Source: Peptococcaceae bacterium BICA1-8
GTDB taxonomy: Bacteria > Bacillota > Peptococcia > Peptococcales > BICA1-8
NCBI GenBank assembly: GCA_000802045.1
Contig: JUEF01000018.1
Coordinates: forward strand, 3,823-67,822
Length of the DNA: 64,000 nt
Reading direction: 5' to 3'
Shown: positions 22,114 to 46,067 of the stretch, in pieces
How the letters are laid out: every line of letters starts with the position of its first letter
Numbering within the stretch: position 1 is the stretch's first letter
Made by a program: the position numbers and the translations under genes
The notes under the pieces: model-generated
Databases searched by the model: none
The model's input: the letters and a program-made list of their open reading frames with translations, nothing else
What the model was told of the DNA's origin: nothing

Positions 22114-22241
22114 GGTAAAAAGATTTAGTGGTTGCCTGCTTTTTAGGCAACCCTTAATTGCAGCTGATATTACCTGCTAGGATGCAGAGATAATCCTGAT
22201 TCTGAAGCCAATTCATAAAGTTATGCTTAGGAGGAAGTAAC

Positions 22242-24346: not shown

Positions 24347-24363
24347 TTAGAGGAGGAAATAAC

Positions 24364-25173: not shown

Positions 25174-25190
25174 TAGAAGGAGGGGCTAGA

Positions 25191-26612
25191 ATGCCTGAGC
25201 CTTGTTGGAGTGTGTTAGAGGTAAAAGATATTGAATTAATCCATGAAACTACATTAGCTATTTTGGGAAATACTGGGATTGAGGTCCGGTATGAACCAGC
25301 TTTAGAAATTTTTAAAAAGGCAGGTGCCCGGATAGAGGGGCAGCGTGTTTTCTTGTCGTCAAAATTGATTGAAACCGAACTTAAAAATGCACCGAGACAG
25401 TTTACATTATTTGCCCGTAACTCGGCAAAAAATGTGAAGATTGGTGGTGCACACACTGTACTTGTTCCAGGTTACGGAGCACCTTTCGTGACTGATAAGG
25501 AAAGGGGAAAACGCAAAGCTACATTTCTTGATTATGAGAATTTCGCCAAATTAGCCGGGGCAAGTCTTAATCTGAGCATGACTGGTGGGGTACTAGTCGA
25601 ACCAAATGATCTTCCCAATGAAATCAGAGCTGCTAAAATGATTTATGGGTGTATAAAAAACTCGGATAAATGCTTTATGGGCAGTGCTTCAGGTTCACAG
25701 AAAGCTCAGGAGAGCATTTCCATGGTGCAGATTTTGTTTGGACCTGAGCATTCTATAGTAGAAAAACCGGCTTTAATAAGTTTGATTAATACTATTACAC
25801 CGTTAATTCTTGATGAACGGATGTTAGGTGCCTTAATGGAATATGCAAAATCAGGTCAGGCTGTGATCGTTGCTTCTCTTGGTATGGCTGGTGCTACCTC
25901 GCCTTCTTCTCTTGCGGGCACTTTAGCAATACAAAATGCAGAAATACTAACTGGTATTGTGCTGGCGCAACTGGTCAGACCTGGGGCTCCGGTGGTCTAC
26001 GGGGCGGCCTCTTCCATTACAGAGATGAGATATGGTTCTCTTGCCATTGGAGCACCCGAAACCTCTTTAATTACCAGTGGATCAGCACAGTTAGCTGCTT
26101 ATTATGGCTTACCATCTAGGGGTGGCGGAGCGATTAGTGATTCTAAAATTCCTGATGCCCAGTCCGGTTGGGAGTCAATGATGAACCTGCTAACAACGGT
26201 AAAAAGCGGTATCAATTTTGTGCTGCATGCTGCTGGGATTCTCGAGTATTACATGACCATGTCTTACGAAAAATTCATTATGGATGATGAATTATGCGGT
26301 ATGGTTTTAAGAATAAAAAAAGGAATTGAAGTAAACGAAGCTACTCTTGCTCTACCGGTAATAGCGAAGGTTGGTCCAGGTGGACATTTTCTAGACCAGG
26401 ATCACACCTTACACACATACAAGAAGGAGTTTTGGAGGCCGGGTATTAGTCATAGGGGCACCTACGACCACTGGAAAATGAAAGGGTCACCTACAGCCCT
26501 TGAGGAAAGTGGGAAGAAATACCGGCAGATATTGGATGAATACCAGCCACCTCAACTTGATGCAAGTATTGACCGCAGTCTTCAAGCCTTTATTAAAGCA
26601 ATTGAGAATTGA
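25191..26612 (+). CDS. MttB-superfamily methyltransferase #3 (MtgB-like subgroup, no pyrrolysine)
   Basis: PGYGAPFV, INTITPL, GATSPSSLAGTL-IQNAEIL, LPSRGGGAISDSKIPDAQSGWES, HAAGILE, VGPGGHFL; clearly diverged from #1 and #2. Confidence 0.9.
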   Translation: MPEPCWSVLEVKDIELIHETTLAILGNTGIEVRYEPALEIFKKAGARIEGQRVFLSSKLIETELKNAPRQFTLFARNSAKNVKIGGAHTVLVPGYGAPFVTDKERGKRKATFLDYENFAKLAGASLNLSMTGGVLVEPNDLPNEIRAAKMIYGCIKNSDKCFMGSASGSQKAQESISMVQILFGPEHSIVEKPALISLINTITPLILDERMLGALMEYAKSGQAVIVASLGMAGATSPSSLAGTLAIQNAEILTGIVLAQLVRPGAPVVYGAASSITEMRYGSLAIGAPETSLITSGSAQLAAYYGLPSRGGGAISDSKIPDAQSGWESMMNLLTTVKSGINFVLHAAGILEYYMTMSYEKFIMDDELCGMVLRIKKGIEVNEATLALPVIAKVGPGGHFLDQDHTLHTYKKEFWRPGISHRGTYDHWKMKGSPTALEESGKKYRQILDEYQPPQLDASIDRSLQAFIKAIEN

Positions 26613-26679
26613 AAATTGAAAATTGAGAATTAAAAAAACAATTGTTCATTCTCCATTCTCAACTCTCCATTCTCCATTA
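26602..26679. repeat. Heptamer tandem repeats in inverted arrangement
   Basis: (TTGA[G/A]AA)x4 at 26602-26629, then (TCCATTC-like)x5 at 26645-26679. Confidence 0.7.
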
Positions 26680-26704
26680 TAAAATCCGGGGGGGCGGGCT
26701 AACC

Positions 26705-28534: not shown

Positions 28535-28677
28535 GAGCGGGGGACTTTAAGCTTGCGGGGTATACCCAATAGCTAAAAAGGAGGTGAGGCAAGGCTTAAG
28601 GTGTTAGAGAGATAATTTAGTGCATAATTCCCGAAATAATATTTAGAAAATTTAAAAAATTCAAGGAGGTTGAGATT

Positions 28678-30231
28678 ATGAACAATAGCTTGTTTGGAAA
28701 GATTGACAAGAGTATTTTCGGTATTTCCGCCATCATCGCCATTGTTTTTGTGCTGTGGGGTGCGTTAATTCCAGAACAAGCAGGTAAAGCCTTTGGAGCC
28801 GCCATGGCATTTTTCACAAATAATTTTGGTTGGTCTTACATGCTGTTTGTTGCACTGTTTTTGGTTTTTTGCATTGTCGTGGCATCGAGCAAATATGGCA
28901 AAATAAAGTTGGGTAAGGATGATGATGTTCCAGAATACAGTACCTGGTCTTGGTTTGCTATGTTGTTCAGCGCTGGGATGGGTATCGGATTAGTATTCTG
29001 GAGTGTTGCTGAGCCCATGTATCATTATGCCAGTCCGCCTTTTGGCGAAGGCAATTCTCTTGAATCGGCTGGTTTGGCAATGCGTTACGTTTTCCTTCAT
29101 TGGGGCTTACACCCTTGGGCTATTTATGGGGTAGTCGGCATGGCCCTTGCATATTTCCAGTTTCGCAAACGGCTGCCTGCTCTAATTAGTTCGACACTGC
29201 ACCCCTTGCTGGGTGACGAAGGAATTAAAGGACCAATTGGTAAAGCAGTGGATATTCTGGCTGTATTTGCCACACTTTTCGGGGTAGCTACCTCCTTGGG
29301 CCTTGGTGCGATGCAGATCAACAGCGGTTTGAACTACGTCTACAATATTGTGGAATCAACTGGTGCAACTGTAGTTATTATCGGAGTAATGACAGTTTTA
29401 TTCATTATTTCGGCGGTAACGGGGATCAATAAAGGGATAAGACTCTTAAGTAACATTAACATGTATTTAGCAGGTATAATTATGCTCTTTGTTCTTTTTT
29501 TAGGACCCACCAGAGCTATTCTTAATATCTTTACTGACACTATGGGTACTTACCTCCAAAACATTGTCCAGATGAGTTTCTGGACTGACCCCTTTGGTAC
29601 CAATCCTGGTTGGGTCGGTGGCTGGACAATTTTCTACTGGGCTTGGTGGATTGCCTGGGGACCTTTTGTGGGAGCGTTTATTGCCAGGATATCCAAAGGT
29701 AGGACCGTAAGAGAGTTTATCCTGGGAGTTCTGATTGCTCCAACTCTTTTGAGCTTTATTTGGCTTTCTATTATGGGCGGAACAGCTGTTTCTCTAGAAG
29801 TATCCGGCGGGGCTGAGATAGCTAAAGCTGTTTCGGCAAACATGTCTACAGCGCTGTTTGCCTTGCTCCATAACTTACCGATGGCAGGTCTGATTTCTTC
29901 TCTAGCAATGCTCTTGATTGGTACATTCTTTATCACTTCTGCAGACTCTGCAACCTTTGTCATGGGCATGCTTACCTCCGGTGGGGACCTAGAGCCAAAA
30001 ACAGGCTTGAAGGTATTCTGGGGTGTCACTGAAGGTGCAGTAGCTGCAGTATTACTGGCAGCAGGTGGTCTTGGAGCCCTGCAAACGGCTTCTATCGTCT
30101 CTGCATTCCCATTTATGATCGTGATGATTTTAATGTGCTATTCATTAGTGAAGGCATTTAATAATGAACAGGGTATAATAGTAGCTAAAGACAAGGTAAC
30201 AAAAGCAGAATCATCTACCGTCTCAGTCTAA
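28678..30231 (+). CDS. BCCT family (betaine/carnitine/choline) transporter
   Basis: WSWFAMLFSAGMGIGLVFWSVAEP, HWGLHPWAIY, WTIFYWAWWIAWGPFVGAFIARISKGRT. Confidence 0.95.
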   Translation: MNNSLFGKIDKSIFGISAIIAIVFVLWGALIPEQAGKAFGAAMAFFTNNFGWSYMLFVALFLVFCIVVASSKYGKIKLGKDDDVPEYSTWSWFAMLFSAGMGIGLVFWSVAEPMYHYASPPFGEGNSLESAGLAMRYVFLHWGLHPWAIYGVVGMALAYFQFRKRLPALISSTLHPLLGDEGIKGPIGKAVDILAVFATLFGVATSLGLGAMQINSGLNYVYNIVESTGATVVIIGVMTVLFIISAVTGINKGIRLLSNINMYLAGIIMLFVLFLGPTRAILNIFTDTMGTYLQNIVQMSFWTDPFGTNPGWVGGWTIFYWAWWIAWGPFVGAFIARISKGRTVREFILGVLIAPTLLSFIWLSIMGGTAVSLEVSGGAEIAKAVSANMSTALFALLHNLPMAGLISSLAMLLIGTFFITSADSATFVMGMLTSGGDLEPKTGLKVFWGVTEGAVAAVLLAAGGLGALQTASIVSAFPFMIVMILMCYSLVKAFNNEQGIIVAKDKVTKAESSTVSV

Positions 30232-30246
30232 AAAAGCTTAAAACTT

Positions 30247-30277
30247 GCCGGGAGGAGGTGCTTGATTACCTCCCGGC
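30247..30277 (+). terminator. Hairpin after BCCT gene
   Basis: GCCGGGAGG...CCTCCCGGC. Confidence 0.45.
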
Positions 30278-30372
30278 CACCAAATGGTGACTTTTTTTTA
30301 AAAAGGTTTTTTACCAAGAAGTGGTGAATATGTATATTAATTCGTAATGAGCAAGCTTTTAGGATTATATTC

Positions 30373-31716
30373 TTGCCTTTTAAAAGAGGTGTTAGCGTGC
30401 AACAAGGGTTTATCAATAAGGTTAGTACACTTAAACTTCAGGAAATAACTGAAATAAATATTTTGAAACAAATTTTATTCTCATTTAGCAAAGCCACAGG
30501 CTTGCGGGCTTTTATTGTAGATTCTCAGGGTGAATTACTTGTTAAACCTGACGAAAAAGAGGAATACTGTGATTTTTGCCAACTGGTCAGGGCTACTCCA
30601 AACGGGGTTTTTAAATGCAAACGTTCTTATACCCGTGCTGGAATTGAAGCGAGTAAATACGGAAAGCCCTATATTTTCCGGTGTCATGCAGGTCTAATTG
30701 TTTGGGCGGCCCCATTACTTGTTGAGGAAGATTTTCTGGGTGCTATAGTTTGTGGGCAGGTCTTAATGTGGGAGCCAGAGGATTTTTTCTGGGAAGAAAT
30801 CGAAGATATGACCCGTGGATTGGGACTTGAGATTAAATTATTAATAGATTATGCCAAAAAGTTAGAGGTGCTTTCAGCCCAAAGAGTCCAAGCAGCTGCA
30901 GACCTCCTGTTTCTCATTGCTAATCACGTTACGAAAACGGGAATGATTACCCTCCAGCAGCGTAGAGCTATAAGTGAGCAGCAGGCAAAGTTAGGTGAAG
31001 AGATACGTGCAAGAAAAATATTAGAAGAGGCTTTTAAGAAAATTGATAACCTCTCAGTAAGGGGTTATTCACTGGAAAAAGAACAGGAGCTAGTTTGCCA
31101 GGTAAGAAAAGGTGATAAAGCAACAGCCTATAGGGTGTTAAACGAAATTTTGGCAGAGATTCTACAGCGTTATTCCGGGGATACAAAAGAAGTTAAAGCT
31201 AGGGTTTTGCAATTGTTGGTGATTATTTCTAGAGCACCGGTAGAGGGGGGAGTTGCCCTAAAAACCCTTTTACCGCTAAATCTGCAGTTTGTAGAAGAAT
31301 TTACACAACTAGATACCATTGAGGGCTTGTGCCATTGGATTGTCCATGTTACTCAAGGTTTCATTGATAGTATGGAGGAAGGGAAAGATGTACGAAATTC
31401 ACAGGTAGTTCAAAAAGCAGGTCATTATATACGCAGTAATTACCGAAAGAAAATAACAGTGGAGGATGTGGCTAAAGCTGTTTATCTTAGCCCCTGCCAT
31501 ATTAGTAAAATTTTCAAACAGGAGTTGGACTGTACGATTATTGAATTTTTGGCTAAAGTCAGAATTGAAGAGGCTAAAAAGCTTTTGCACGATCCAAAGT
31601 ACAGCGTAATTCAAGTGGCAGATGATTTGGGTTTCAAAGATCCCGGTTATTTTACCAAAGTTTTTAAACGAAACGAAGGAATTACTCCCAGCCAGTACCG
31701 GGAAAACGCATTGTAA
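30373..31716 (+). CDS. PocR ligand-binding domain AraC-family regulator
   Basis: PocR Cys pattern (YCDFC...CKRS...FRCHAGL...GAIVCGQ) plus C-terminal AraC HTH (VYLSPCHISKIFK...GFKDPGYFTKVFKRNEGITPSQYR); TTG start uncertain. Confidence 0.9.
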   Translation: MPFKRGVSVQQGFINKVSTLKLQEITEINILKQILFSFSKATGLRAFIVDSQGELLVKPDEKEEYCDFCQLVRATPNGVFKCKRSYTRAGIEASKYGKPYIFRCHAGLIVWAAPLLVEEDFLGAIVCGQVLMWEPEDFFWEEIEDMTRGLGLEIKLLIDYAKKLEVLSAQRVQAAADLLFLIANHVTKTGMITLQQRRAISEQQAKLGEEIRARKILEEAFKKIDNLSVRGYSLEKEQELVCQVRKGDKATAYRVLNEILAEILQRYSGDTKEVKARVLQLLVIISRAPVEGGVALKTLLPLNLQFVEEFTQLDTIEGLCHWIVHVTQGFIDSMEEGKDVRNSQVVQKAGHYIRSNYRKKITVEDVAKAVYLSPCHISKIFKQELDCTIIEFLAKVRIEEAKKLLHDPKYSVIQVADDLGFKDPGYFTKVFKRNEGITPSQYRENAL

Positions 31717-31750
31717 TGATTTTTTATTTGTCCTTAAGGGGGGAAAAGTT

Positions 31751-32422
31751 GTGGGAGATCTAAAACAAATTGCCGCTGCAGTGGTAGAGGGTCAGGCAGC
31801 ATTAGTCAAGATGCTAGTAGATGAAGCATTAGCTGATGGTACTACTCCATCTGACATTCTATATCATGGGTTAATAGTAGGAATGGACATTGTTAGTGCA
31901 CGTTTTAGTAATGAAGAGTTTTATGTTCCGGATGTGTTAATCTCTTCTCGAGCTGTTCATGCTGGGATGCGAGTAGTTAGGCCACTATTATTAGAAAATT
32001 CTGCACTAATAGAAGGTAAAATTGCTATTGGTACGGTAGCCGGCGATTTGCATGATATCGGCAAGAATCTGGTGATTATATTTCTAAGATCCAGGGGTTA
32101 TGAGGTGGTGGATTTGGGGATAGATGTTCATCCAGAGGAATTTGTGGAAGCTGTTTTGCTGCAAAAGCCTCAGGTACTGGGTATGTCTGCACTTTTGACT
32201 ACTACTATGCCTATTATGGCAAGTACGGTTAAACTTCTAGAACAGGCAAATATTCGGGATCAGGTAAGAGTGATTGTTGGCGGTGGCCCAGTTACCCATG
32301 ATTATAGTATGTCAATTAAAGCAGACGGATATGCGGCTGATGCCAGGAGCGCAGTCGATTTGGTAAATAAATGTATTAGAGAGTCAAAGGAGGAGTACCA
32401 TGGATCCGGTTGTATTAGATAA
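31751..32422 (+). CDS. Corrinoid (B12-binding) protein #2
   Basis: YVPDVLISSRA, GTVAGDLHDIGKNLV, SALLTTT, IVGGGP; GTG start at 31751 after a G-rich RBS. Confidence 0.92.
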   Translation: MGDLKQIAAAVVEGQAALVKMLVDEALADGTTPSDILYHGLIVGMDIVSARFSNEEFYVPDVLISSRAVHAGMRVVRPLLLENSALIEGKIAIGTVAGDLHDIGKNLVIIFLRSRGYEVVDLGIDVHPEEFVEAVLLQKPQVLGMSALLTTTMPIMASTVKLLEQANIRDQVRVIVGGGPVTHDYSMSIKADGYAADARSAVDLVNKCIRESKEEYHGSGCIR

Positions 32423-33077
32423 TATCCCGTTTAAGGTTGACTTGGAGCAGTTTCTAAAGCTAATTCGTGTAACTGATAAACCTGGCTATGCTGAAAAAGC
32501 GGTAAGATTAGTTACTGAGGCACAAAGCATTGCTAGGCCAAAGGCAATGTATAGAGAGGCTTTTATAGAAGAAAAAGGTGACGATTTTGTAATTGTTGAA
32601 GGCATCACCTTGACCAGTAGAGTTCTCAGGGTTAATTTAAACGATGCCTATAGGATATACCCCTACATTGCCACGTCCGGGGTAGAGATGGAAGAATGGT
32701 CAAAGGGAATTGAGGATATGCTGGAAAAGTTTTGGGTCGATGTCGTTAAGGAGATGGCTTTGCGTGTCGCTATACAGACTTTCCTCCAGAATTTTAAAGA
32801 AAGCACTTACCAGGGAAATACCTCTTCAATGAATCCAGGCTCCCTCCAAGATTGGCCTATTCAAGAGCAGTCGAAACTTTTCTCAATCCTAGGCAATCCT
32901 GAGTTAGTTGGGGTTAATCTTTCTCAGAGTTCTTTAATGTACCCTATTAAATCAGTTTCAGGCTTCAGGTTCCCTACTGAAGTGAATTTTGATAACTGCC
33001 AGCTCTGTTCACGGGAAAAATGCCCAGGCCGTAAAGCTCCATATGATGAAAATTTGTATGAAGAGAGATTTGCTTAG
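32400..33077 (+). CDS. Vitamin B12-dependent methionine synthase activation-domain-like protein
   Basis: SMNPGSLQDWPIQEQ, SLMYPIKSVSG, C-terminal CQLCSREKCPGRKAPY; overlaps the corrinoid gene end. Confidence 0.75.
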   Translation: MDPVVLDNIPFKVDLEQFLKLIRVTDKPGYAEKAVRLVTEAQSIARPKAMYREAFIEEKGDDFVIVEGITLTSRVLRVNLNDAYRIYPYIATSGVEMEEWSKGIEDMLEKFWVDVVKEMALRVAIQTFLQNFKESTYQGNTSSMNPGSLQDWPIQEQSKLFSILGNPELVGVNLSQSSLMYPIKSVSGFRFPTEVNFDNCQLCSREKCPGRKAPYDENLYEERFA

Positions 33078-34769: not shown

Positions 34770-34941
34770 TTATATTTAGCATTTATGAGTGTAACCATGA
34801 ATTGGTATATAAAACTTTAAAAAAAAAGGAGAATAATTTCCCAGAAATTTTTTAATAAAATTTTAATTATGCTTTTATTTAACAATATATTATTATAAAT
34901 GTACAAACCTTAGTAATTAATTTTTTAAAAGGAGGTAAATT

Positions 34942-35133
34942 ATGTTTGGATTCTTGCCTAACATAGGCATAGCGGAAATTTCTCTTATTCTTGTTTTGGC
35001 ACTGATTATTTTTGGTCCTGGTAAACTACCTGAAGTGGGAAAGGCATTAGGTAAGAGTATAAATCAGTTTATGGCAGCAGTTAAAACGACTGAGAATAAT
35101 ATAAATGAGGAAGTTGAAAAAATTGAGAAATAA
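34942..35133 (+). CDS. tatA: Twin-arginine translocase subunit TatA
   Basis: IGIAEISLILVLALIIFGPGKLPEVGKALGKSINQF. Confidence 0.92.
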   Translation: MFGFLPNIGIAEISLILVLALIIFGPGKLPEVGKALGKSINQFMAAVKTTENNINEEVEKIEK

Positions 35134-35189: not shown

Positions 35190-36389
35190 GTGTGTAGGCT
35201 GTTTGGAGAAAGAATTAATAGTAAAATATTTAGAACAATCCAAGTAGCTGTGATTATTACAGTTTTTGCAGCTTTAAGCTACTACTTATTTTTTACCCAA
35301 AAAAGTGATATTGAAAAAGTAGTTAAGGATGTAATTCCCCAAGCAGAGAAAGTTGTGGTAGTTAATAAAGAGCCATTAATTTATGAAGGTATAAACAATG
35401 ATACTACTGTCGGATATGCAGTTTTAGATAAAGCGACAGGATATCAATCAAATATAAAAATTATGACTGGCGTTAACACCGAGGGAATTATAACTGGAGT
35501 CTATGTAGTTGAACAGCAAGAAACTCCGGCTTTTTTCCGGCAATTAGTCGAAAACGATTTTTTTGAACAATTCCTAGGAAGAGAAATTCAAAGGGGTTTC
35601 TCAGAGGGAAATATTGATGTAATCGGTGGAGCAACTATCTCCTCTTCTGCTGTAATTAAAGCAGTAAATTCGGCGACAAATTATGCAGGGAAAAATTATT
35701 TAGAGTTACCAATGCCCAAATTAGCTCTTAACATTTTCTTTGGCTTAAAAGAGATATTCATCGCCTTGCTTATACTCATTGCAGTTTATGCAACTTATTC
35801 CCCTAAGGCTAAATTAAGAACATTTTGCCTGATTTTTTCAATTTTTGTTTTAGGCTTTTTCTATAAAGCTTTTATTACTAATGGAGCGTTAGCATTATTA
35901 CTAACAGCATATTTTCCAAATCCATTGGAAAATATCTCTTGGTACTTTTTAGTGGGAGGAGCATTCCTTTTAATTCTATTTACAGGCAAGAATATTTTCT
36001 GTTTTTGGATTTGTCCTTTTGGTTCAGTTCAGGAATTATTAGCCAAAGTAGGAGGCATGAGTTACATACCTGGTAAAAGATATGATAAATTAACTAAATA
36101 CATACCCGGTTTTTTCTTGTGGTTATCATTAGTTTTTGCTTTTCTATCCGGAAATCCCGCTGCTGCCAGCTATGAACCATTTGCTGTATTATTTAGTCAA
36201 ATGGGTTCATACATCCAGTGGATATTATTACTCGTTGTTCTTTTGGCATCTTTATTTATTTTTCGCTTTTGGTGCAATTATTTTTGCCCGGTGGGTTTTA
36301 CTTTAAATTTATGGGCTAAACTGCGTAGAAGGGGAGTAGATTTATGGAGAAAAAAAGTGAGAAAGATCAAAGAGACTATATCTTCGTAG
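35190..36389 (+). CDS. RdhC/PceC (NosR/NirI-like) FMN-binding membrane protein with 4Fe-4S motifs
   Basis: Extracytoplasmic FMN-bind domain (QETPAFF...IDVIGGATISS), multiple TM helices, two CX3CP motifs (CFWICPFG, WCNYFCPVG); start uncertain. Confidence 0.85.
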   Translation: MCRLFGERINSKIFRTIQVAVIITVFAALSYYLFFTQKSDIEKVVKDVIPQAEKVVVVNKEPLIYEGINNDTTVGYAVLDKATGYQSNIKIMTGVNTEGIITGVYVVEQQETPAFFRQLVENDFFEQFLGREIQRGFSEGNIDVIGGATISSSAVIKAVNSATNYAGKNYLELPMPKLALNIFFGLKEIFIALLILIAVYATYSPKAKLRTFCLIFSIFVLGFFYKAFITNGALALLLTAYFPNPLENISWYFLVGGAFLLILFTGKNIFCFWICPFGSVQELLAKVGGMSYIPGKRYDKLTKYIPGFFLWLSLVFAFLSGNPAAASYEPFAVLFSQMGSYIQWILLLVVLLASLFIFRFWCNYFCPVGFTLNLWAKLRRRGVDLWRKKVRKIKETISS

Positions 36390-36503
36390 TATTGTTATTA
36401 ATTACAGTAGTATTGGTCAGTTTAGTAATTATTGAGAATGCAGGATTAATTTAAAATTGTTTTACTAGACTATAAGCCTTAAAAAATAATACTGATATTA
36501 GAG

Positions 36504-36527
36504 CTCACCTGTTTTTTGCAAGGTGAG
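36504..36527 (+). terminator. Terminator between rdhC and cytochrome gene
   Basis: CTCACCT...AGGTGAG followed by TTTTT. Confidence 0.5.
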
Positions 36528-36652
36528 TTTTTATATTATTTTTATGTTTTTACTATCCCCGTTTACAACTTTTTAATCAATAATTTGTTACAGTGTTATA
36601 TAGAAACAAATCTCAATCAAAAATTATAAAGAATAGGAGGGGTGTAATTTAA

Positions 36653-37156
36653 TTGAAAGCTGTTCATAAAGCTCTAATCTTTATTATAGTCATAATTTTA
36701 GGGCAATTAGTTGTGTCTGCTTGTTCTAGTTCAGCCCCTGAGCAACAAATAAGACAAGAACCATCACCGTCTTCTATAGAAAGGGAAGAGAAAGAAGAAA
36801 CTAAGCTAGAAAAGGAAGAATTAACCTTAACAATAAGCCAGGTTAACGAACAATTAATAAGCTCTTCATTTTTAGATAGTGCTCATATCACCAATGAAGT
36901 AGGTTGTAATGATTGTCATTACAACTTAGAAGAAGGCAAGCCTGTAACCTTGCCAGAAGATCAAACTTGTTTAGATTGTCACGGTAGCTATAATGATCTA
37001 GCAGATTTCTTAAAAGATAAAGAACAGTGGAAAAATTATAATCCCCATTTTGCCCACGAGAGAGATGATTGTATAACATGTCATAAGGCTCATCAGCCCT
37101 TTGAATTAACATGTTCTAGCTGCCATTCTGTAAGGGCGCCGGAAAGGTTTAGATAA
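36653..37156 (+). CDS. Tetraheme cytochrome c lipoprotein (cytochrome c3 / Fcc3 heme-domain-like)
   Basis: Lipobox LVVSAC; four CxxCH motifs: CNDCH, CLDCH, CITCH, CSSCH, with NPHFAH between hemes 2 and 3; RBS AGGAGG. Confidence 0.9.
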   Translation: MKAVHKALIFIIVIILGQLVVSACSSSAPEQQIRQEPSPSSIEREEKEETKLEKEELTLTISQVNEQLISSSFLDSAHITNEVGCNDCHYNLEEGKPVTLPEDQTCLDCHGSYNDLADFLKDKEQWKNYNPHFAHERDDCITCHKAHQPFELTCSSCHSVRAPERFR

Positions 37157-37194
37157 GGTAAAATAATAAAAAATAGTCTAAGAGGAGGGACAGT

Positions 37195-38604
37195 ATGCCT
37201 GAACAATTAACCCGTAGGCAAATGATTAAAGCTTTAGGCTTAGCAGGAGCTGGAGTAAGCCTAGCGGCAGTAAGCGGTGGAAACCCTTTAAATGCTGCAA
37301 GTGAAGCAATAGCAGATACTAAAGCCCAGCCCGTACCACGCCGTTATTGGTGGGTAAAAAATGTAGACAAAATAACAATGGAAGTGGATTGGAAAAACTA
37401 CAAAAGGTTTAGTGAATGGAAGACTACTAGAGGGAGCTTAAAAGAGTACCGTGGGAATGCAGAAGATGCTAAATATTTGAAGCTGCAAAAAGATAACCTT
37501 TTGAAATGGGAGCTAGAAAATGTTCCCGGGTATACAACAAAGGATACGGCTTTAAAAAATGCCGTAGGTTATGGACGTCCACCTTTCCAATTTATGGGTC
37601 CACAGACGGTGTCTACTCCACAGGATAGGGGAGTCCCTATTTATGAAGGATCTCCTGAAGAAAGTTCCAGGATAATAACTGCTGCCTTAAGACATATGGG
37701 AGCAGCAACTGTTGGTTTTGTACAACTTGAACCTGATTCAACCCGTAAGCTTATCTATGCAGAGGAACCGGCACCTAGTAAAAAGCCAATTTTCTTTGAA
37801 AATGTTGATGTCGGTTATGAGGATGAGAAGAAGCTGGTAGTACCTGATAAAGCCCGCTGGATAATAGTTTTTACTATTCAAATGTCAACGGAGACTATGA
37901 AATATGGCCCTACCCAGTTAGGCTCTCTGACTACGGCACTAACATATACTAGAATGTGGACAATTGTTTCCCAGCTCCATGAATTTTTACGGGGATTAGG
38001 CTATCATTCTTATGGTCCCAGTCAGTTTAACGGTTTTTCAATTAACCCGGCTTTGGCTACCTTGGCAGGCTTAGGTGAGATGTCCAGGTTAAATCGGATA
38101 ATTACTCCTGAGTATGGCCCTATGGTCAGAGCAGTTTCAATTGCAACAGATCTACCCCTTGCTCCAACAAAACCTATTAGCTTTGGAGTAATGGATTTCT
38201 GTAAAGATTGTAAGACCTGTGCGGAGATTTGTCCATCAGGTGCCTTAAGTATGGACAGAGAACCATCCTGGGAGGGTAAAGGTCCCTGGAATAACGGTGG
38301 AGCCCATAAAGCTTGGTACGAAGACTCTGTGAAATGTAGAAATTACTGGAATACCTGTGGAACCAACTGCGGAACCTGTTTTTCTTCTTGTCCTTATGCT
38401 GTTGATGATGAAGCCAGTATGCATAAGATTATTAAAGGGACAATTGCTAGTACTACTATGTTTAATTCATTACTAGTTGCTGCTGATCGCAAGGCATTTC
38501 CGGCAACAACGGGACAGCCCATGAAAAACCCTGAAGACTGGTGGAAGGATACAAATCTGGCTGAGATGGGTATTGACACCCGTCGCGGCGGTAGAAATAT
38601 TTAA
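37195..38604 (+). CDS. rdhA: Reductive dehalogenase catalytic subunit (Tat-exported)
   Basis: Tat signal TRRQMIK; WWVK…EVDW…KRF; HMGAATVGF; LAGLGEMSRLN; FCKDCKTCAEICP and CGTNCGTCFSSCP Fe-S motifs. Confidence 0.93.
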   Translation: MPEQLTRRQMIKALGLAGAGVSLAAVSGGNPLNAASEAIADTKAQPVPRRYWWVKNVDKITMEVDWKNYKRFSEWKTTRGSLKEYRGNAEDAKYLKLQKDNLLKWELENVPGYTTKDTALKNAVGYGRPPFQFMGPQTVSTPQDRGVPIYEGSPEESSRIITAALRHMGAATVGFVQLEPDSTRKLIYAEEPAPSKKPIFFENVDVGYEDEKKLVVPDKARWIIVFTIQMSTETMKYGPTQLGSLTTALTYTRMWTIVSQLHEFLRGLGYHSYGPSQFNGFSINPALATLAGLGEMSRLNRIITPEYGPMVRAVSIATDLPLAPTKPISFGVMDFCKDCKTCAEICPSGALSMDREPSWEGKGPWNNGGAHKAWYEDSVKCRNYWNTCGTNCGTCFSSCPYAVDDEASMHKIIKGTIASTTMFNSLLVAADRKAFPATTGQPMKNPEDWWKDTNLAEMGIDTRRGGRNI

Positions 38605-38608
38605 ATAA

Positions 38609-38926
38609 ATGGAGGTGGATGGATTGCTCTGGTTAATCTTAGGTATTATTATCGGTGTAGCCGCGTTTTGGGTATTTAATGCAAATAAAAGCGGGAAGAT
38701 AACTGTTAAGTGGTATCAGTGGGCATTAGGAATAATTGCCCTAGTAATGCTTTTGTTGACAGTTGAAAACTATATTAATTTTCAAAAAGAGCTTGAACCG
38801 GTGGCAGCTAATTTTATGCTGGTTGGGCTAGGAGTACCGGCCTTGTTAGCCGCATCTCTAATTTGGTTAATTCCTGTGTTTAAAAAAGGTAAAGCTAACA
38901 CAGGTGAAACAAAGGTATCAAGCTAG
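38609..38926 (+). CDS. rdhB: Reductive dehalogenase membrane anchor
   Basis: 105 aa, three TM helices, KWYQW and ELEPVAA motifs, 4 bp after rdhA. Confidence 0.88.
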   Translation: MEVDGLLWLILGIIIGVAAFWVFNANKSGKITVKWYQWALGIIALVMLLLTVENYINFQKELEPVAANFMLVGLGVPALLAASLIWLIPVFKKGKANTGETKVSS

Positions 38927-38932
38927 AACAAC

Positions 38933-38959
38933 AAGGTTGAAGGATTATCCTTCAACCTT
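38933..38959 (+). terminator. Terminator after rdhB
   Basis: AAGGTTGAAGGA-TTA-TCCTTCAACCTT. Confidence 0.65.
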
Positions 38960-39048
38960 TAATGTTCTTAATCCCATTTATATACATTTTATTTTTGGAG
39001 GAATAGAAACTTTAAAAGCCGAATATAGCATATAGGCTTTTTCAAGGG

Positions 39049-40608
39049 GTGATATTATTGTCTGCTTTGGATCAAAATGATAATATTCTTAACAGCTTCT
39101 CTGACCTATTGGTTCGTTCACCCAGTTGTAGTTGTGTTTTAAAAGACCTTTTAGAAACAGTTGTAAATAATTGGCACGCAAATATTGGCATGATTCTGAT
39201 CAAAGATCATCAAGATAATCTTCGGCCCCTAGCCTTGATAAATAAAACAAATATTGAACTTAAAATAAAATTTGCAGCTCGCGATTTTCATGAGCACTTG
39301 AGCGGTCTTGTAAATATCCAAGCATGTTTGATAACAGATAGTCAGATAGAGTTTAAAGAAGATGGGGATATGTTTATTTTCTCTTGTCCCTTATGGATAG
39401 AAAACAAAATTATTGGGATATTGTCCTTATGTGGTATGGCAGAATACTTGCCGAAAAAAGAAGATATTGCAATTCTACAGGTTATTACCAACCAGATATC
39501 ACTATCTTTAGAAAAGGAATTAGCTGTTGAAAAAAATAATACTCAACAGTATTGTTTCAATTCAGTTTTAGACAGTCTGACTGAGGGGATAGCAATAGTA
39601 AATGTGAATAAAATAATTTATTCTAACTCTTTAATTAGAAGGATGTTAAAGTGTGGGGTAAATGTAAATATAAACTTAGAGGATTTTTTTAATTGTGTAA
39701 TTAATATAAGTAAAGAGCCATTTAAAACTCAAATCTACCTTGAAACATGCAGAGTAGTTGAGAAGGAAACTTATACCTTTGAGATTGAAACTAAGGATAA
39801 TAGCTATATGAAATTTACTAAATTTCATATCCTTTCACCGGGCAAGGAACTTCTAAGCTTTGGCTTTTTAGTTAGTGATATTACTAAGCACAAAGAAGCA
39901 GATAAATTGAAAAATGATCTTATGGCAATTGTCAGCCATGAATTACGTACACCTCTTACCAGTATTAAAGGTAATGTAAGCTCATTATTGAGAAAAGATG
40001 TAATGTGGACTGATGAAATGAAGGACGATTTTTTAAACGATATCTATGATGAATGTAACAGATTAAATATGCTAATTGAGAAAATCTTAGATATCTCTAA
40101 AATAAATGCAGGGGTCTTAAAACTACAAAAAGAATTAATAAGAATTGATAAACTATTAAATAAATTTAATTTAAAGATTGTAAATAGACTTTTCCAGAGG
40201 CAGGAAATAAATTTTGACATTAATAATGGAACGGATATCTTAGAGATTGACGAAGAAAAAATACAACAGGTGTTAGTAAATCTTATCGATAACGCGGTTA
40301 AATACGGTGAAGGTGATGTAAAAATAAAAATCGGTGTAAGAAGAGAGGACGACATGGTGCTTTTTTCTGTCGCGGATAATGGACCTGGAATAGCCCAGGA
40401 TGTTTTAGATAAAATTTTCCAAAAGTTTTATCAAGTAAATAATAGTTCCCATGCTAATAACCTGGGAAGTGGATTGGGGTTAGCTATATGCAAAGGTTTT
40501 GTTCAGGCCCATGGAGGAACAATTTGGGTCGGAAGTACCCTAGGCAAAGGGAGTACCTTTTATTTTACTCTTCCTTTAAAAAAAGAAGGGGGTGAGGTAT
40601 TTGGCTAA
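39049..40608 (+). CDS. Soluble sensor histidine kinase (GAF-like + PAS-like + HisKA + HATPase)
   Basis: IVSHELRTPLTSIKG, QVLVNLIDNAVKY, DNGPGI, GSGLGLAICKGFVQAHGG; no TM segments. Confidence 0.92.
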   Translation: MILLSALDQNDNILNSFSDLLVRSPSCSCVLKDLLETVVNNWHANIGMILIKDHQDNLRPLALINKTNIELKIKFAARDFHEHLSGLVNIQACLITDSQIEFKEDGDMFIFSCPLWIENKIIGILSLCGMAEYLPKKEDIAILQVITNQISLSLEKELAVEKNNTQQYCFNSVLDSLTEGIAIVNVNKIIYSNSLIRRMLKCGVNVNINLEDFFNCVINISKEPFKTQIYLETCRVVEKETYTFEIETKDNSYMKFTKFHILSPGKELLSFGFLVSDITKHKEADKLKNDLMAIVSHELRTPLTSIKGNVSSLLRKDVMWTDEMKDDFLNDIYDECNRLNMLIEKILDISKINAGVLKLQKELIRIDKLLNKFNLKIVNRLFQRQEINFDINNGTDILEIDEEKIQQVLVNLIDNAVKYGEGDVKIKIGVRREDDMVLFSVADNGPGIAQDVLDKIFQKFYQVNNSSHANNLGSGLGLAICKGFVQAHGGTIWVGSTLGKGSTFYFTLPLKKEGGEVFG

Positions 40609-41296
40609 AAAAGTATTATTAGTAGAAGATGACGAAAAAATTATGAGGTTTATTCGAGCTAATTTAGTAGCAAGCAATTTTGAGGTAATTACTGCAAAAG
40701 ACGGCAGAGAAGCATTGGAAAAATACGAGCAGCTTTTACCTGATTTGATACTACTAGACCTTATGCTGCCAGAGATAGGCGGTTTTGATGTACTTAAAAA
40801 TATAAGAGAATATTCATCAGTTCCGGTTATTATTATCACTGCCAAAGGGAACACCTCTGATACAATTCGTGGTTTAGAATTAGGGGCAGATGATTATGTT
40901 GTAAAGCCTTTTGATATAAATGAATTATTAGCTAGAATAAATGCCGTTGTTAGAAGATGTATTAAAGAGAGGATTGATGACAGTCCCATTTTAAATACAG
41001 GTGAACTGCATATTAATTTGGCTAGCTATAAGGTGAAGGTAGGAATTAACAATATTAAACTAACACCTACTGAATTTAAACTTTTGGCAGAATTAGCAAT
41101 AAATAATGGCAAAGTAATTACCCATGAAGCCCTGCTAACTAAAATTTGGGGGCTTGAATATAGGGACGAAACCCATTATTTAAGGGTATGTGTAGCAAGA
41201 ATTAGACAGAAGTTGAAGCTAAGAGATGGAGATATAGGATTTATTCAGACAATTCCTACTGTAGGATACAAAATGCAAGAGGATACCACCTTGTAG
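40601..41296 (+). CDS. OmpR/KdpE-family response regulator
   Basis: VLLVEDD, DLILLDLMLP, GADDYVVKPF, winged helix LTPTEFKLL...YLRVCVARIRQKL; TTG at 40601. Confidence 0.93.
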   Translation: MAKKVLLVEDDEKIMRFIRANLVASNFEVITAKDGREALEKYEQLLPDLILLDLMLPEIGGFDVLKNIREYSSVPVIIITAKGNTSDTIRGLELGADDYVVKPFDINELLARINAVVRRCIKERIDDSPILNTGELHINLASYKVKVGINNIKLTPTEFKLLAELAINNGKVITHEALLTKIWGLEYRDETHYLRVCVARIRQKLKLRDGDIGFIQTIPTVGYKMQEDTTL

Positions 41297-41314
41297 TAAT
41301 TTGGGAGGATTCAG

Positions 41315-42538
41315 ATGAATATTCAGCCTGTAAATAAAACTACCGCCGAACTATATGAGGTGGAACATTCTTATAAAAGATTTAATCAAATGAATAATCT
41401 TATTATTCAAATGTACTGGAACGAGGAAATAAAAAAGCTAGAAAACAAACGACAAGAAAACCTGCAAAAGTATATAAAGGAAAAGAGGGCAGGTTATTCA
41501 CTTCTGGATTTTGCTTATTTTAATGGTCCATTAAGCTTTGTTGATAACATTAATTACGGAATAAATTTTTGTGATCAAAAAGCAAATAGTTGGTCCAGTG
41601 ATCTTGCATCTGGAAAAGTAGACTTAGATGTCTTTAGTCCCCAAGAATTAACAACGGCAATAAAAAAAGCTTCAAGTATGTATGGAGCAAGTGATGTTGG
41701 TATTGCCCCATTAGACCGCCGTTGGTTTTACTCCCATTGGTTTGATCACAATACTAAAAAGAGCTATCCAATCCATTTTTCAGATGAGGATGAAAAATAT
41801 TCCTATATAAAAGAACCTACACTTTTGGAAAATAACATAAGAGTAATACCAAAAGAGATGAAATCGGTAATAGTTTTTATTTTTGAGATGAGTAATGAAT
41901 GCTTAAAACGGTCCCCGACAATTTTGCCGTATGGGGAAGGAGTAAATGTATATTCCAAAATGAGCTTGCTTACCATGAACATTGCCGGTTTTATAAGAAC
42001 ATTAGGATATAATGCTATACCAAGTATAAACTGTACAGCTTTAAATATACCCTTAGCAATAGACGCCGGATTAGGGCAACTAGGGCGTAATGGAAAACTT
42101 ATAAATCCCCATTTAGGTTCACGAATAAGGATTGCAAAGGTTATTACCGATATGCCCTTAATACATGATAAGCCCATTAATTTTGGTGTTACAGAATTTT
42201 GTGATGCTTGTCGAAAGTGTGCGAGGGAGTGTCCAGTTGGTGCAATTCCCAGCGGTACTAGAACTAGACAGCCAGTTGATGAACTGGGTAATGCTCATTA
42301 TTTAAGATGGCCAGTTAATCATAAGAAGTGTTTTGAATATTGGAGTGAATGTGGGACAAATTGTAATATCTGCTTATATGTATGTTCTTATAACCGGGGG
42401 TATAAGTGGACAAAAGGTATTTTAAATGCCACTCATAGAGATAATTCTCTTATTGATACCCTATTAGATGGCCTTGAAGATGACTATGGATTAGAATTAA
42501 TAAATAAAGACTCTGATGATTTTTGGTTTAAGGGATAA
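41315..42538 (+). CDS. rdhA: Second reductive dehalogenase-like corrinoid/Fe-S protein lacking a Tat signal
   Basis: YKRFNQ, IKKASSMYGASDVGIAPLDRRWFYSHW, LGYNAIPS, PLAIDAGLGQLGRNG, FCDACRKCARECP, CGTNCNICLYVC; no RR motif; RBS GGAGG directly after the regulator stop. Confidence 0.85.
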   Translation: MNIQPVNKTTAELYEVEHSYKRFNQMNNLIIQMYWNEEIKKLENKRQENLQKYIKEKRAGYSLLDFAYFNGPLSFVDNINYGINFCDQKANSWSSDLASGKVDLDVFSPQELTTAIKKASSMYGASDVGIAPLDRRWFYSHWFDHNTKKSYPIHFSDEDEKYSYIKEPTLLENNIRVIPKEMKSVIVFIFEMSNECLKRSPTILPYGEGVNVYSKMSLLTMNIAGFIRTLGYNAIPSINCTALNIPLAIDAGLGQLGRNGKLINPHLGSRIRIAKVITDMPLIHDKPINFGVTEFCDACRKCARECPVGAIPSGTRTRQPVDELGNAHYLRWPVNHKKCFEYWSECGTNCNICLYVCSYNRGYKWTKGILNATHRDNSLIDTLLDGLEDDYGLELINKDSDDFWFKG

Positions 42539-45582: not shown

Positions 45583-45713
45583 TTAATGCCTCTTTGAGAC
45601 AAAAGACTCAAAGAGGCATTAAGGTAATAATTAAGAGAAAACCTTTCTGAAACTAGAAAGGTAAGGTTCTATAATAACTATTCCTTTCGTCTCGGTCCTA
45701 TTGGCTCAGAGCG
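45583..45713 (-). promoter_or_regulatory. Attenuator-like 5' leader of panCD (possible pan RNA motif)
   Basis: On the minus strand: CGCTCTGAGCCAATAGGACCGAGACG (45713-45688), a small hairpin (45641-45662), then a 16-bp-stem terminator (45583-45622) just upstream of the panC RBS. The pan-motif assignment is from memory, not a covariance search. Confidence 0.5.
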
Positions 45714-46067
45714 AAAACAATATATTAAGTTGTTGGATAATTTTTTTAAAGGTTTAGTTCCATGTGGATACTAGCCTTAAATTATAGGTTGATTTATTAT
45801 TAATTTTTAAAACTCTTATGATATAAATATACAATAAATGAACTAAAATATCTACTTCTTTATTCAAATTTATCCCTTCTTATGTTATTAAGGGAGGTAG
45901 AATTTTATTAATCATGCTCCAGTCCATCGGGATATGGTGTATTCCTTTTGATTAAATATGAAATAAATGAAAAATTATAGGAGTTTCATTTTTTAAAAGC
46001 AATTGATATCGATAATAAGTCCGATTTGAAAGAAAGAGTAGGTTGATGATTAAAATGGTAAAGAGGA

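Follow-up and report, generated by a model that had tools for sequence, protein, structure and literature searches.

Within the window (the whole 64,000-nucleotide stretch of DNA analysed here, from Peptococcaceae bacterium BICA1-8), three genes lie in close succession on the forward strand: one for a predicted tetrahaem cytochrome c lipoprotein (positions 36653-37156; 167 amino acids, with a TTG start directly behind an in-frame TAA in the list of open reading frames), rdhA (37195-38604), for the Tat-exported corrinoid and iron-sulfur catalytic subunit of a reductive dehalogenase (TIGR02486 and PF13486), and rdhB (38609-38926), for a 105-residue membrane anchor with three hydrophobic segments and the sequence E-L-E in the loop between the second and third of them. 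The source of this DNA is a rock porewater metagenome, and the sequencing runs that contain the window are of DNA only. An earlier sequence-only reading of the locus had described a lipoprotein with four CxxCH motifs placed 38 bp ahead of a Tat-bearing rdhA, with rdhB following 4 bp further on, and the open reading frames match that description in full. The same reading had placed terminator-like hairpins on either side of the trio (36504-36527 and 38933-38959), and both of these proved to be real. The first, a hairpin with a T run located 3' of rdhC (36500-36533, forward strand), folds at -16.6 kcal/mol within positions 36495-36540 (z -5.9; 0 of 200 shuffled sequences folded equally well), and the second, which lies 3' of rdhB on the same strand and displays a 12-bp stem and a weak T tail, folds at -22 kcal/mol within positions 38925-38975 (z -7.0). 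Folding of the spacer between the cytochrome gene and rdhA gave no structure (z 0.04), and an Rfam search of the rdh locus returned no RNA elements.

The cytochrome is composed of a signal peptide and lipobox (residues 1-24), a disordered tether rich in E, K, S and P (approximately residues 25-60) and a tetrahaem domain of approximately 90 residues (75-167). The signal peptide (MKAVHKALIFIIVIILGQLVVSAC) ends in the lipobox V-S-A-C, in agreement with the pattern [LVI][ASTVI][GAS]C, and the lipobox cysteine is found in 11 of the 13 listed homologues as well as in a further locus from a Chloroflexota MAG (L079); by this motif the protein would be a lipidated bacterial lipoprotein. It harbors four haem-binding motifs (CNDCH, CLDCH, CITCH and CSSCH) and matches the Pfam family Cytochrom_c3_2 (PF14537) with 50.3 bits where 25 are required, over profile positions 2-79 of 79, and in a phmmer search of the PDB its residues 77-160 aligned with Shewanella flavocytochrome c3, in the tetrahaem domain of that protein; by these profile and alignment scores it is a protein of the STC/Fcc3 tetrahaem type. 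In an alignment of 11 homologues linked to rdh genes, all four CxxCH motifs and the histidines H78, H132 and H147 are invariant, while H135 is invariant in the closer homologues and an NPHxxH motif is retained in the remainder, such that four further conserved histidines accompany the four CxxCH motifs, as expected for bis-histidine ligation. An AF2 model of the cytochrome, computed from an 11-row alignment, had a mean pLDDT of 64.7 (residues 25-54 fell below 50), and a Foldseek comparison of that model with the PDB gave no match at E<8, a haem-free model being a poor probe for a protein packed with haem; given the moderate model and the empty structural search, the fold is assigned exclusively from sequence profiles.

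Several more specific identities were considered for this protein and rejected. Its scores fell below those required of a type I cytochrome c3 (PF02085; 17.6 bits against a gathering threshold of 22.9), of TmcA (NF045722; 16.8 against 114) and of the NCBIfam CctA model (17 against 180); membership in QrcA was rejected on score; and a score of 28.6 against a cut-off of 340 indicates that it is not a Cgr1. The NapC/NirT/NrfH quinol dehydrogenase cytochromes were defined by an N-terminal transmembrane helix directly ahead of the first haem motif together with the family profile, and here no match to those profiles was found and the first CxxCH motif lies 61 residues past the lipobox cysteine.

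The RdhA encoded in the window scores 259.9 bits against TIGR02486 (cut-off 160.35), 98.6 against PF13486 (cut-off 24.3; E 5e-28) and 32.6 against Fer4_16 (cut-off 30), and it displays a Tat motif, RRQMIK, that was read by eye, with the Pfam TAT_signal profile giving 17.9, below its cut-off of 22.7. The family score, the twin-arginine leader and two Fe-S motifs together identify it, at the level of sequence, as a respiratory reductive dehalogenase. Its nearest solved structure in a phmmer search of the PDB is Sulfurospirillum multivorans PceA (4uqu; 1.5e-45), followed by Desulfitobacterium hafniense PceA (8q4h; 6.4e-32 over 184 residues), and the latter alignment ends at RdhA residue 401, short of the menaquinone-pocket region. 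In the D. hafniense complex that pocket is formed by C-terminal RdhA helices (K489, H495, R499, D515 and Y520) and by the second and third transmembrane segments of RdhB, and because its residues are also kept in quinone-free organisms (PMC10624902), they would not discriminate. The product of 38609-38926 is predicted to be the RdhB anchor, being approximately 100 residues long with three transmembrane segments and an ExE motif and encoded directly behind rdhA; its identity to RdhBs from related loci, which bear the PF27193 VcrB annotation, is 33-51%, while a local Pfam profile search gave no match of the window protein to PF27193, and the ExE motif is kept in 12 of 14 sequences, that of the window included. 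A second RdhA gene, rdhA2 (41315-42538, forward strand; TIGR02486 210 bits), lacks a Tat signal and is always located 3' of a kinase-regulator gene pair, the resulting HK-RR-rdhA2 triple recurring in L001, L007, L071, L072, L073 and L074.

The sequence-only reading had proposed a survey of genomes for rdhA genes with an adjacent multihaem cytochrome, and such a survey established that the pairing is conserved. Among the 12 closest relatives of the cytochrome whose neighborhoods were examined, 10 adjoin rdhA-rdhB (P0002-P0009, P0015 and P0016; phmmer E 1e-42 to 2e-14), and one genome (G113) carries two tandem cytochrome copies that are also beside rdhA-rdhB. The linkage extends to at least 13 bacterial lineages in two phyla; the paired loci span 34-65% GC, with Desulfosporosinus shakirovi, Desulfitibacter sp. 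BRH_c19 and a Chloroflexota MAG among their carriers, and the samples that yielded carriers comprise porewater, subsurface, groundwater and sediment. In a reverse test, a Chloroflexota MAG RdhA (L079; 65% identical) was chosen blind to its neighbors, and a gene for a PF14537 lipoprotein cytochrome was found directly upstream. While most of the cytochrome-linked RdhAs belong to a single clade, 55-81% identical to the window RdhA, that of L075 belongs to a different clade (37% identical) and is still linked to a cytochrome; the gene order in L010 is altered to rdhA-rdhB-cytochrome; and the linkage persists down to approximately 30% cytochrome identity. The identities of the cytochrome, RdhA and RdhB to their window counterparts rank alike (Mantel r 0.39, p 4e-4): the three proteins diverge in parallel, and, judged from these comparisons, the association between cytochrome and dehalogenase is not due to chance.

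The distribution of the cytochrome is nevertheless patchy. Strong matches came from 4 genomes, of four families, among the 401 searched in the phylum, and none of these belongs to the window's own order, a pattern that fits horizontal transfer of a cassette. When metagenome contigs were searched with the cytochrome alignment, one locus was recovered, the cytochrome of which is identical to that of L007. All eight of the distant relatives with scanned neighbors adjoin Tat-exported FAD_binding_2 reductases, and two relatives adjoin cupredoxin (nos-like) genes, which suggests that the family generally serves extracytoplasmic reductases. The earlier concern that orthologues of the cytochrome might occur only beside flavocytochrome reductases was not borne out: close relatives are neighbors of rdhA, and flavoreductase genes adjoin distant ones only. 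Two Desulfitobacterium-family genomes encode RdhA orthologues (72% identical, and matching the RdhA named by NCBI for Desulfitobacterium sp. PCE1) in the order HK-RR-rdhA2-rdhA-rdhB-napG-napH, and no close copy of the cytochrome was found either at the rdh locus or elsewhere in those two genomes, which argues that the cytochrome is accessory, rather than obligatory, for the enzyme. Papers on D. hafniense DCB-2 and on Desulfatiglans single cells mention both rdhA and multihaem cytochromes and link neither to the other, and a cytochrome in the pce island of Geobacter lovleyi was considered and dropped since the published order comprises pceT-pceC-pceA1-pceB1-pceA2-pceB2 only; in line with the earlier expectation that the arrangement is not common among described rdh loci, no paper describing it was found.

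The regulatory features of the unit lie ahead of the cytochrome gene and in the genes that follow rdhB. A 23-bp direct repeat (TTTTTATATTA/TTTTTATGTTTT; 36528-36550, forward strand), in which two TTTTTAT units are found 11 bp apart in an operator-like arrangement, has no second match in the window when up to 3 mismatches are allowed (0.01 expected). An exact copy is located 100 bp ahead of the cytochrome gene in L007, a 3-mismatch copy lies ahead of the cytochrome gene in L001, and copies with 2-4 mismatches precede rdhA in L071, L072 and L073, three loci without the cytochrome gene; no second copy at up to 3 mismatches was found elsewhere in the compared loci. A looser form of the repeat occurs 7 times in the window against 3.1 expected, an enrichment that is not significant, so that a possible second site ahead of tatA is a hint only, and rdhC has at best that weak copy, upstream of tatA. 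Downstream of the trio, again on the forward strand, are genes for a histidine kinase (39049-40608; HisKA and HATPase_c, with orthologues 42-44% identical in L071, L072 and L073) and an OmpR-type response regulator (40592-41296; Response_reg and Trans_reg_C, 58-60% identical in the same three loci). The OmpR-type regulator is present in every repeat-bearing locus, and the repeat is probably its operator. A possible extended -10 element, TGtTATATA (36594-36602, forward strand), was read from the sequence within a stretch conserved with L001; a promoter scan did not call it, and it is therefore put forward as a candidate only. The synteny in 13 lineages, the parallel divergence and the operator-like site shared ahead of the cytochrome gene together lend strong support, at the comparative level, to the earlier suggestion that the cytochrome is dedicated to the RdhA-RdhB unit.

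Genes that could supply electrons or maturation functions are located both within the window and elsewhere in the same genome. Upstream of the rdh genes, on the forward strand, lie tatA (34942-35133; 63 residues, PF02416 E 1e-18 and NF011430 above its cut-off), a dedicated Tat component that in L007 is also found directly ahead of the cytochrome gene, and a gene for an RdhC-like membrane protein (35190-36389) with an N-terminal FMN_bind domain (PF04205, E 1.6e-15), a NapH-like Fer4_5 domain (PF12801, E 2e-16) and additional partial matches to NapH, NosR and RnfG. The order rdhC-cytochrome-rdhA-rdhB is shared with L075, and RdhC occurs alongside the cytochrome in only these two of the 13 lineages; in the window, moreover, a terminator separates the two genes. 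A commoner partner is a pair of napG-like and napH-like genes located 3' of rdhB in three lineages (L006, L007 and L011), which is termed 'NapGH-like' only because its best matches to the equivalog models fall far below their cut-offs (80-85 against 269 for NapG and 97-102 against 234 for NapH). In 8 of the 13 lineages, a dedicated quinol dehydrogenase is absent from the DNA examined. The window genome also encodes true NapC/NirT/NrfH family members elsewhere (an NrfH on C89, and on C157 an orphan NapC/NirT-type, that is CymA/NapC-type, cytochrome at G000:C157:15539-16027), four PF01578 genes of the CcsA/ResC type for c-type cytochrome maturation, nine other open reading frames with at least two CxxCH motifs, an ApbE flavin transferase and MenA; it can make c-type cytochromes.

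Parts of this arrangement are familiar from characterized systems. A NapGH-like quinol dehydrogenase has been proposed as the feeder of PceA in Sulfurospirillum, and S. multivorans PceAB, a Tat-exported RdhA and an RdhB encoded beside NapG-like and NapH-like genes (SMUL_1541/1542; PMC4585668), resembles the three related loci described above; the proposed path there runs from menaquinol through the quinol dehydrogenase to a PceA that is, among those with solved structures, the nearest match to the window RdhA. A cytochrome c is absent from the Sulfurospirillum organohalide-respiration region as described (PMC4585668), whereas the first gene of the unit described here encodes a tetrahaem lipoprotein, and the organisms that carry it are monoderms of the Bacillota and Chloroflexota. 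The PceA2B2 complex of D. hafniense TCE1 (8q4h; PMC10624902) resembles the window unit in combining an RdhA with an RdhB of three helices and an ExE motif, and the window also contains, close by, a gene for an RdhC-type flavoprotein; however, no intermediate carrier from quinol to RdhA is required in the model for that complex (PMC10624902), the pceABCT operon is without a cytochrome, pceT is absent from the window unit, and the window RdhA matches that PceA only distantly.

The cytochrome itself is most readily compared with the Shewanella proteins STC/CctA and FccA/Ifc3, the tetrahaem domains of which belong to the same Pfam family (PF14537), contain four bis-histidine haems in approximately 90 residues and can be aligned with it across all four. 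STC and FccA receive electrons from CymA, a quinol dehydrogenase, and hand them on to terminal reductases. In comparison to those proteins, the window cytochrome would be lipid-tethered rather than soluble or fused, and its partner is a corrinoid dehalogenase rather than a flavin domain or a metal-reducing conduit. In the NapGH-NapC/NapB-NapA and NosGH-NosC-NosZ chains of E. coli and Wolinella, a NapH-type Fe-S protein of the membrane and an exported NapG-type ferredoxin pass electrons from quinol to a small c-type cytochrome and from there to an exported terminal reductase; here RdhA is in the position of the terminal enzyme, and the cytochrome belongs to the STC type instead of the NapC, NapB or NosC types. 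Split flavocytochromes of Bacillota and their relatives, in which a small PF14537 cytochrome is encoded beside a Tat-exported FAD_binding_2 reductase (Cgr1-Cgr2 of Eggerthella lenta being the named example behind the NCBIfam match), share the logic that an exported reductase is supplied by a small outer-face haem protein, although their cytochromes form a separate branch of the tree and serve a different partner enzyme. Passages of two published analyses describe flavinylated, NapH-like RdhC/PceC proteins as the accepted candidate link between membrane and RdhA (PMC5928378, PMC8238504), and passages of one of them describe PF14537 haem domains and flavinylated domains as interchangeable in the wiring of extracytosolic reductases (PMC8238504). 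The examples in those passages are fumarate reductases and alcohol oxidases, with no rdh example found among them (PMC8238504), while here the flavoprotein and the cytochrome either co-occur (in the window and in L075) or the cytochrome is found without the flavoprotein.

The explanation that best accounts for these observations as a whole, and that we regard as probable though well short of certain, is that the cytochrome belongs to an organohalide-reducing module as its dedicated subunit for electron transfer, relaying electrons from a quinol dehydrogenase to RdhA. The cytochrome gene, rdhA and rdhB would be co-transcribed from a promoter under the control of the OmpR-type regulator of the locus; the cytochrome would probably be exported by Sec, anchored by lipid to the outer face of the membrane, loaded with four bis-histidine haems by the genome's system II machinery and held at the membrane by a flexible tether of approximately 35-50 residues. 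Its tetrahaem domain of approximately 90 residues would then accept electrons from a membrane quinol dehydrogenase and deliver them to RdhA, itself exported by Tat and anchored by RdhB, at its outer Fe-S cluster. Candidate donors are RdhC in the window genome, the NapGH-like pair in its relatives and, possibly, the orphan NapC/NirT-type cytochrome.

The most serious competitor to this explanation, which we consider unlikely, is that RdhA-RdhB draw electrons directly from menaquinol, and that the cytochrome is a side entrance that could couple RdhA to an outward-facing hydrogenase or formate dehydrogenase, to reduced humics or to mineral Fe(II), or else a buffer that could store electrons and help to re-reduce inactive Co(II) corrinoid. 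The cryo-EM structure of PceA2B2, which argues that RdhA and RdhB alone oxidise menaquinol (PMC10624902), is the precedent for such a scheme, and the ExE motif retained in the window RdhB, the dispensability of the cytochrome for this RdhA clade in Desulfitobacterium, the eight lineages that lack a locus-encoded quinol dehydrogenase and the provenance of the carriers (porewater, subsurface, groundwater and sediment) are all in keeping with it; however, where additional redox genes occur at these loci, they resemble quinol dehydrogenases (NapGH-like or RdhC) and are not hydrogenase subunits, and the reductases accompanied by other members of the cytochrome family lack their own quinol site.

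A role outside of respiration, in which the cytochrome senses redox state for the two-component system or drains stray electrons to protect the corrinoid enzyme, appears improbable: while a two-component system is always nearby and the cytochrome gene is the first of the regulated unit, the kinase shows cytoplasmic domains only (HisKA, HATPase_c and a weak GAF), with no outward-facing domain to meet a lipoprotein, and the homologues of the cytochrome are paired with catalytic reductases rather than sensors. Least probable of all, in our estimation, is that a general extracytoplasmic carrier simply travels with a mobile rdhAB cassette in the absence of any specific interaction. The patchiness across the phylum would suit that scenario, but the linkage has outlasted divergence to approximately 30% cytochrome identity, the 34-65% range in GC, the separation of two phyla, the changed gene order of L010 and the changed RdhA clade of L075, and the operator-like site precedes the cytochrome gene itself. 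Returning to the relay from quinol dehydrogenase to RdhA, the sequence-only reading is supported in part: it had gone on to propose a distinct route for organohalide respiration, and given that RdhC accompanies the cytochrome in two of 13 lineages, that a terminator separates their genes in the window, that eight lineages are without a dedicated dehydrogenase and that the cytochrome is accessory, such a route is one that we infer.

The joint encoding, regulation and inheritance of these genes in at least 13 lineages point to a haem-based electron feed for organohalide-reducing enzymes, for which no describing paper was found in the literature. In a broader and more tentative reading, which we would put forward as a possibility rather than as an expectation, the unit would represent a third wiring scheme, beside the RdhA-RdhB that oxidises quinol directly and the quinone-free complex of Dehalococcoides: a horizontally mobile cassette, in which a low-potential tetrahaem adaptor plugs one widespread RdhA clade into whichever donors a host may offer (NapGH-like, RdhC, CymA-like or extracellular), and in which the cytochrome would be the obligatory physiological reductant of RdhA in those organisms that carry it.

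How the corrinoid dehalogenase receives its electrons from the quinone pool is the central problem of organohalide respiration: the potential of menaquinol lies far above that of the Co(II)/Co(I) couple, and the role of RdhC has been questioned. Desulfosporosinus shakirovi SRJS8 should exist in culture, as its species name is validly published, and the Desulfitobacterium orthologues provide a natural control without the cytochrome. The pairing extends the idea of flavin and cytochrome interchange to dehalogenases, and it marks a large environmental RdhA clade (508 relatives at E below 1e-60). A conserved and co-regulated cytochrome partner, found across phyla, offers a concrete and testable alternative route to RdhA.

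The locus opens on the forward strand with tatA (34942-35133) and an RdhC-like gene (35190-36389) encoding an FMN_bind and a NapH-like Fer4_5 domain, and continues on that strand with the cytochrome gene (cyt, 36653-37156), rdhA (37195-38604), rdhB (38609-38926), and a block (39049-42538) of histidine kinase (HK), OmpR-type response regulator (RR) and a second RdhA gene lacking a Tat signal (rdhA2). The cyt reading frame starts with a TTG immediately 3' of an in-frame TAA, and its 167-residue product has a signal peptide that closes with the lipobox VSAC, four CxxCH motifs, and a match covering the full Pfam profile Cytochrom_c3_2 (PF14537; 50.3 bits against a cut-off of 25), with residues 77-160 aligning, in a phmmer search of the PDB, with the tetrahaem domain of Shewanella flavocytochrome c3. 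The sequence-only reading had described a cyt-rdhA-rdhB unit with gaps of 38 and 4 bp, bracketed by two hairpins; reading frames, Pfam matches and folding against shuffled sequence bore this out in full detail, the hairpins on both sides folding far more stably than shuffled sequence (z -5.9 and -7.0) and folding analysis showing no structure in the cyt-rdhA spacer.

Just upstream of the locus lies a large methyltransferase cluster (18476-33077) that combines three MttB-family genes with genes for a pterin-binding methyltransferase, a RACo corrinoid activator, a corrinoid protein, a BCCT transporter and a PocR/AraC regulator; ComA and ComB-like sulfolactate genes come next, so that much corrinoid-dependent chemistry is encoded in a single region. 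The sole Rfam match in the window was a pan motif (45683-45777, reverse strand; 55 bits against a gathering score of 36.2) upstream of a pantoate-beta-alanine ligase gene.

An exhaustive phmmer search with the cytochrome over 1.84 billion cluster representatives returned 369 relatives at E <=0.001, and only 30 at E <=1e-10. The gene surroundings of 12 of the closest were read; rdhA-rdhB adjoined ten, and cupredoxin genes the remaining two. The order cyt-rdhA-rdhB-HK-RR-rdhA2 recurred as a cassette in two public run assemblies (L001, L074), and HK-RR-cyt-rdhA-rdhB-napG-napH was found both in Desulfosporosinus sp. SRJS8 (D. shakirovi; L006/L012) and in another public run assembly (L011). Desulfitibacter sp. 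BRH_c19 (L007-L009) carries tatA-cyt-rdhA-rdhB-napG-napH-HK-RR-rdhA2, a 65% GC contig (L017) HK-RR-rdhA'-cyt-rdhA-rdhB, and GCA_001730225.1 (L075) rdhC-cyt-rdhA-rdhB; the bare trio was found in a Bacillota MAG (L013) and in metagenome assemblies (L014/L015), and the order rdhA-rdhB-cyt in a Desulfitobacterium sp. MAG (L010). Two tandem cyt-rdhA-rdhB units are present in genome G113 of a phylum survey. In a reverse test, a Chloroflexota-annotated RdhA, 65% identical to that of the window and chosen without knowledge of its neighbours, proved to have a gene for a 167-aa PF14537 lipoprotein cytochrome directly upstream. In all, the pairing was found in 13 lineages and 14 modules, at 34-65% GC and in two phyla, and the comparative evidence for the association is strong.

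Several of these loci show further peculiarities. The tandem units of G113, a Bacillota MAG, lie at 3337-6023 and 8803-11515 of contig C24 (L040), each with a cyt-rdhA gap of ~450 bp, and the ExE motif is gone from both RdhBs (NLE and EYH). The rdhA frame of L010 (genome G367) is broken at the Tat leader (2229-2420), with an in-frame stop upstream and the called protein beginning past the leader, and that of L013 is divided into two ORFs (6478-7905); either decay of the copies or misassembly would explain these breaks.

The cyt-linked RdhAs are 55-81% identical to that of the window, except that of L075, which belongs to a different clade (37%); the corresponding ranges are 29-49% for the cytochromes and 33-51% for the RdhBs. 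All three proteins order the loci alike, and their identity matrices correlate (Mantel r 0.39, p 4e-4). Among 401 genomes evenly drawn from the phylum, six encode the window's RdhA clade (the next-best RdhA being 41% identical), and cyt was found in four of these six, spread over four families; no genome of the order to which the window belongs had it, and the module is thus rare and patchy, and probably mobile.

The cyt start is preceded, at a distance of 103 bp, by a 23-bp direct repeat, TTTTTATATTATTTTTATGTTTT (two TTTTTAT units 11 bp apart), which is single in the window at <=3 mismatches (0.01 matches expected). An exact copy precedes cyt by 100 bp in L007, despite proteins only 43-71% identical; a copy with three mismatches occupies the same position in L001, and copies with two to four mismatches precede rdhA in three loci without cyt (L071, L072, L073), with none elsewhere in these five loci at <=3 mismatches. 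Because every repeat-bearing locus encodes the OmpR-type kinase-regulator pair, the repeat is most simply read as that regulator's putative operator, and its position would put cyt at the head of the regulated unit. A weaker form of this repeat, TTTTAATAAAATTTTAAT (34850-34867, ~75-90 bp upstream of tatA), might place tatA-rdhC under the same regulator; the loose repeat pattern is not enriched over chance in the window (7 found against 3.1 expected). The HK-RR-rdhA2 triple is kept as a block beside differing catalytic rdhA clades (L001, 12474-15996; L007, 10209 onward; L071, 4092-7585; L073, 8002-11488; L074, 2864-6021), 3' of rdhB in most loci and 5' of rdhA in Desulfitobacterium, with rdhA2 identities of 54-60% from locus to locus; RdhA2, which is cytoplasmic, may belong to the sensing machinery.

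The host assembly (3.98 Mb, 37% GC), whose DNA is present in full in a 2015 rock porewater metagenome run that is probably its source, encodes four haem c maturation genes of the CcsA/ResC type, NrfHA and several further multihaem cytochromes, MenA, ApbE, and two additional full-length rdhA genes (contigs C87 and C107); no second copy of cyt was found in it. A hexahaem lipoprotein cytochrome gene on contig C118 (27036-30100) adjoins the sole ApbE flavin transferase gene and another lipoprotein gene, and together they might form a further extracytoplasmic electron-transfer unit.

The cytochrome is most economically read as a tethered electron relay to RdhA, in keeping with the possible electron carrier suggested by the sequence-only reading. 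A disordered tether (residues 25-54 have AF2 pLDDT <50) would keep the 90-aa tetrahaem domain close to the membrane, within reach of a quinol dehydrogenase as well as of the Fe-S end of an RdhB-anchored RdhA. The candidate donor is RdhC in the window and L075, and in L006, L007 and L011 a NapG-like and NapH-like pair, for which NapG and NapH are the best NCBIfam matches, at scores below the equivalog cut-offs. A further candidate in the window's genome is encoded by a stand-alone gene on contig C157 (15539-16027) that no reductase gene adjoins. The product, a tetrahaem cytochrome of the NapC/NirT/CymA type (162 aa) bearing an N-terminal membrane helix, might be the general quinol dehydrogenase that serves the organism's lipoprotein cytochromes; its feeding of cyt would parallel the CymA-to-STC route of Shewanella. 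In Sulfurospirillum, a NapGH-like dehydrogenase has been proposed as the electron source of PceA (PMC4585668), a NapGH association has been reported for a Desulforhopalus bin (PMC12908670), and a third study (PMC8238504) shows PF14537 and flavinylated domains to be interchangeable in wiring extracytosolic reductases. Back to back with the rdh modules lie an FdnGHI-like formate dehydrogenase with cytochrome b and FdhE in L011 (10159-12528, reverse strand) and a NiFe hydrogenase with a cytochrome b subunit in L073 (753-4017, reverse strand), which fit as quinone-reducing donors for these chains.

In a substantial alternative, the dehalogenase complex also takes electrons straight from quinol, the cytochrome serving it as a side entrance or buffer. 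In two Desulfitobacterium-family genomes, an RdhA 72% identical to the window's, matching an NCBI-named protein of Desulfitobacterium sp. PCE1, is encoded in the order HK-RR-rdhA2-rdhA-rdhB-napG-napH, and a Desulfitibacter relative carries rdhC-rdhA-rdhB, all without cyt, which by gene content marks the cytochrome as an accessory. This alternative is retained because of these loci; because the PceA2B2 structure has been argued to show RdhA-RdhB able to oxidise menaquinol unaided, with the role of RdhC questioned (PMC10624902), and the window RdhB keeps the ExE motif; because no dedicated quinol dehydrogenase was found in the DNA read around the module in 8 of the 13 lineages; and because a terminator-like hairpin parts rdhC from cyt in the window.

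A full-text literature search, which covered mostly work outside subscription journals and is not final, found no paper that places a cytochrome c gene within an rdhAB operon; the accessories described there for published rdh loci were B, C, T, K-type or NapGH-like genes only. For the weaker relatives of cyt in the phylum, at E 1e-9 to 1e-14, no rdhA lies within 1.5 kb, and Tat-exported FAD_binding_2 reductases adjoin all eight whose neighbours were scanned. In a haem-domain tree these FAD_binding_2-linked sequences form a separate branch, and all rdh-linked sequences, together with the two cupredoxin-linked ones, fall into one group (support 91/90) holding three well-supported rdh subclades, a topology compatible with one recruitment of the family to rdh or with several. 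Taken with the neighbouring genes, the tree suggests that these small tetrahaem proteins, as a family, generally serve reductases at the membrane's outer face, one part of the family having specialised on dehalogenases.
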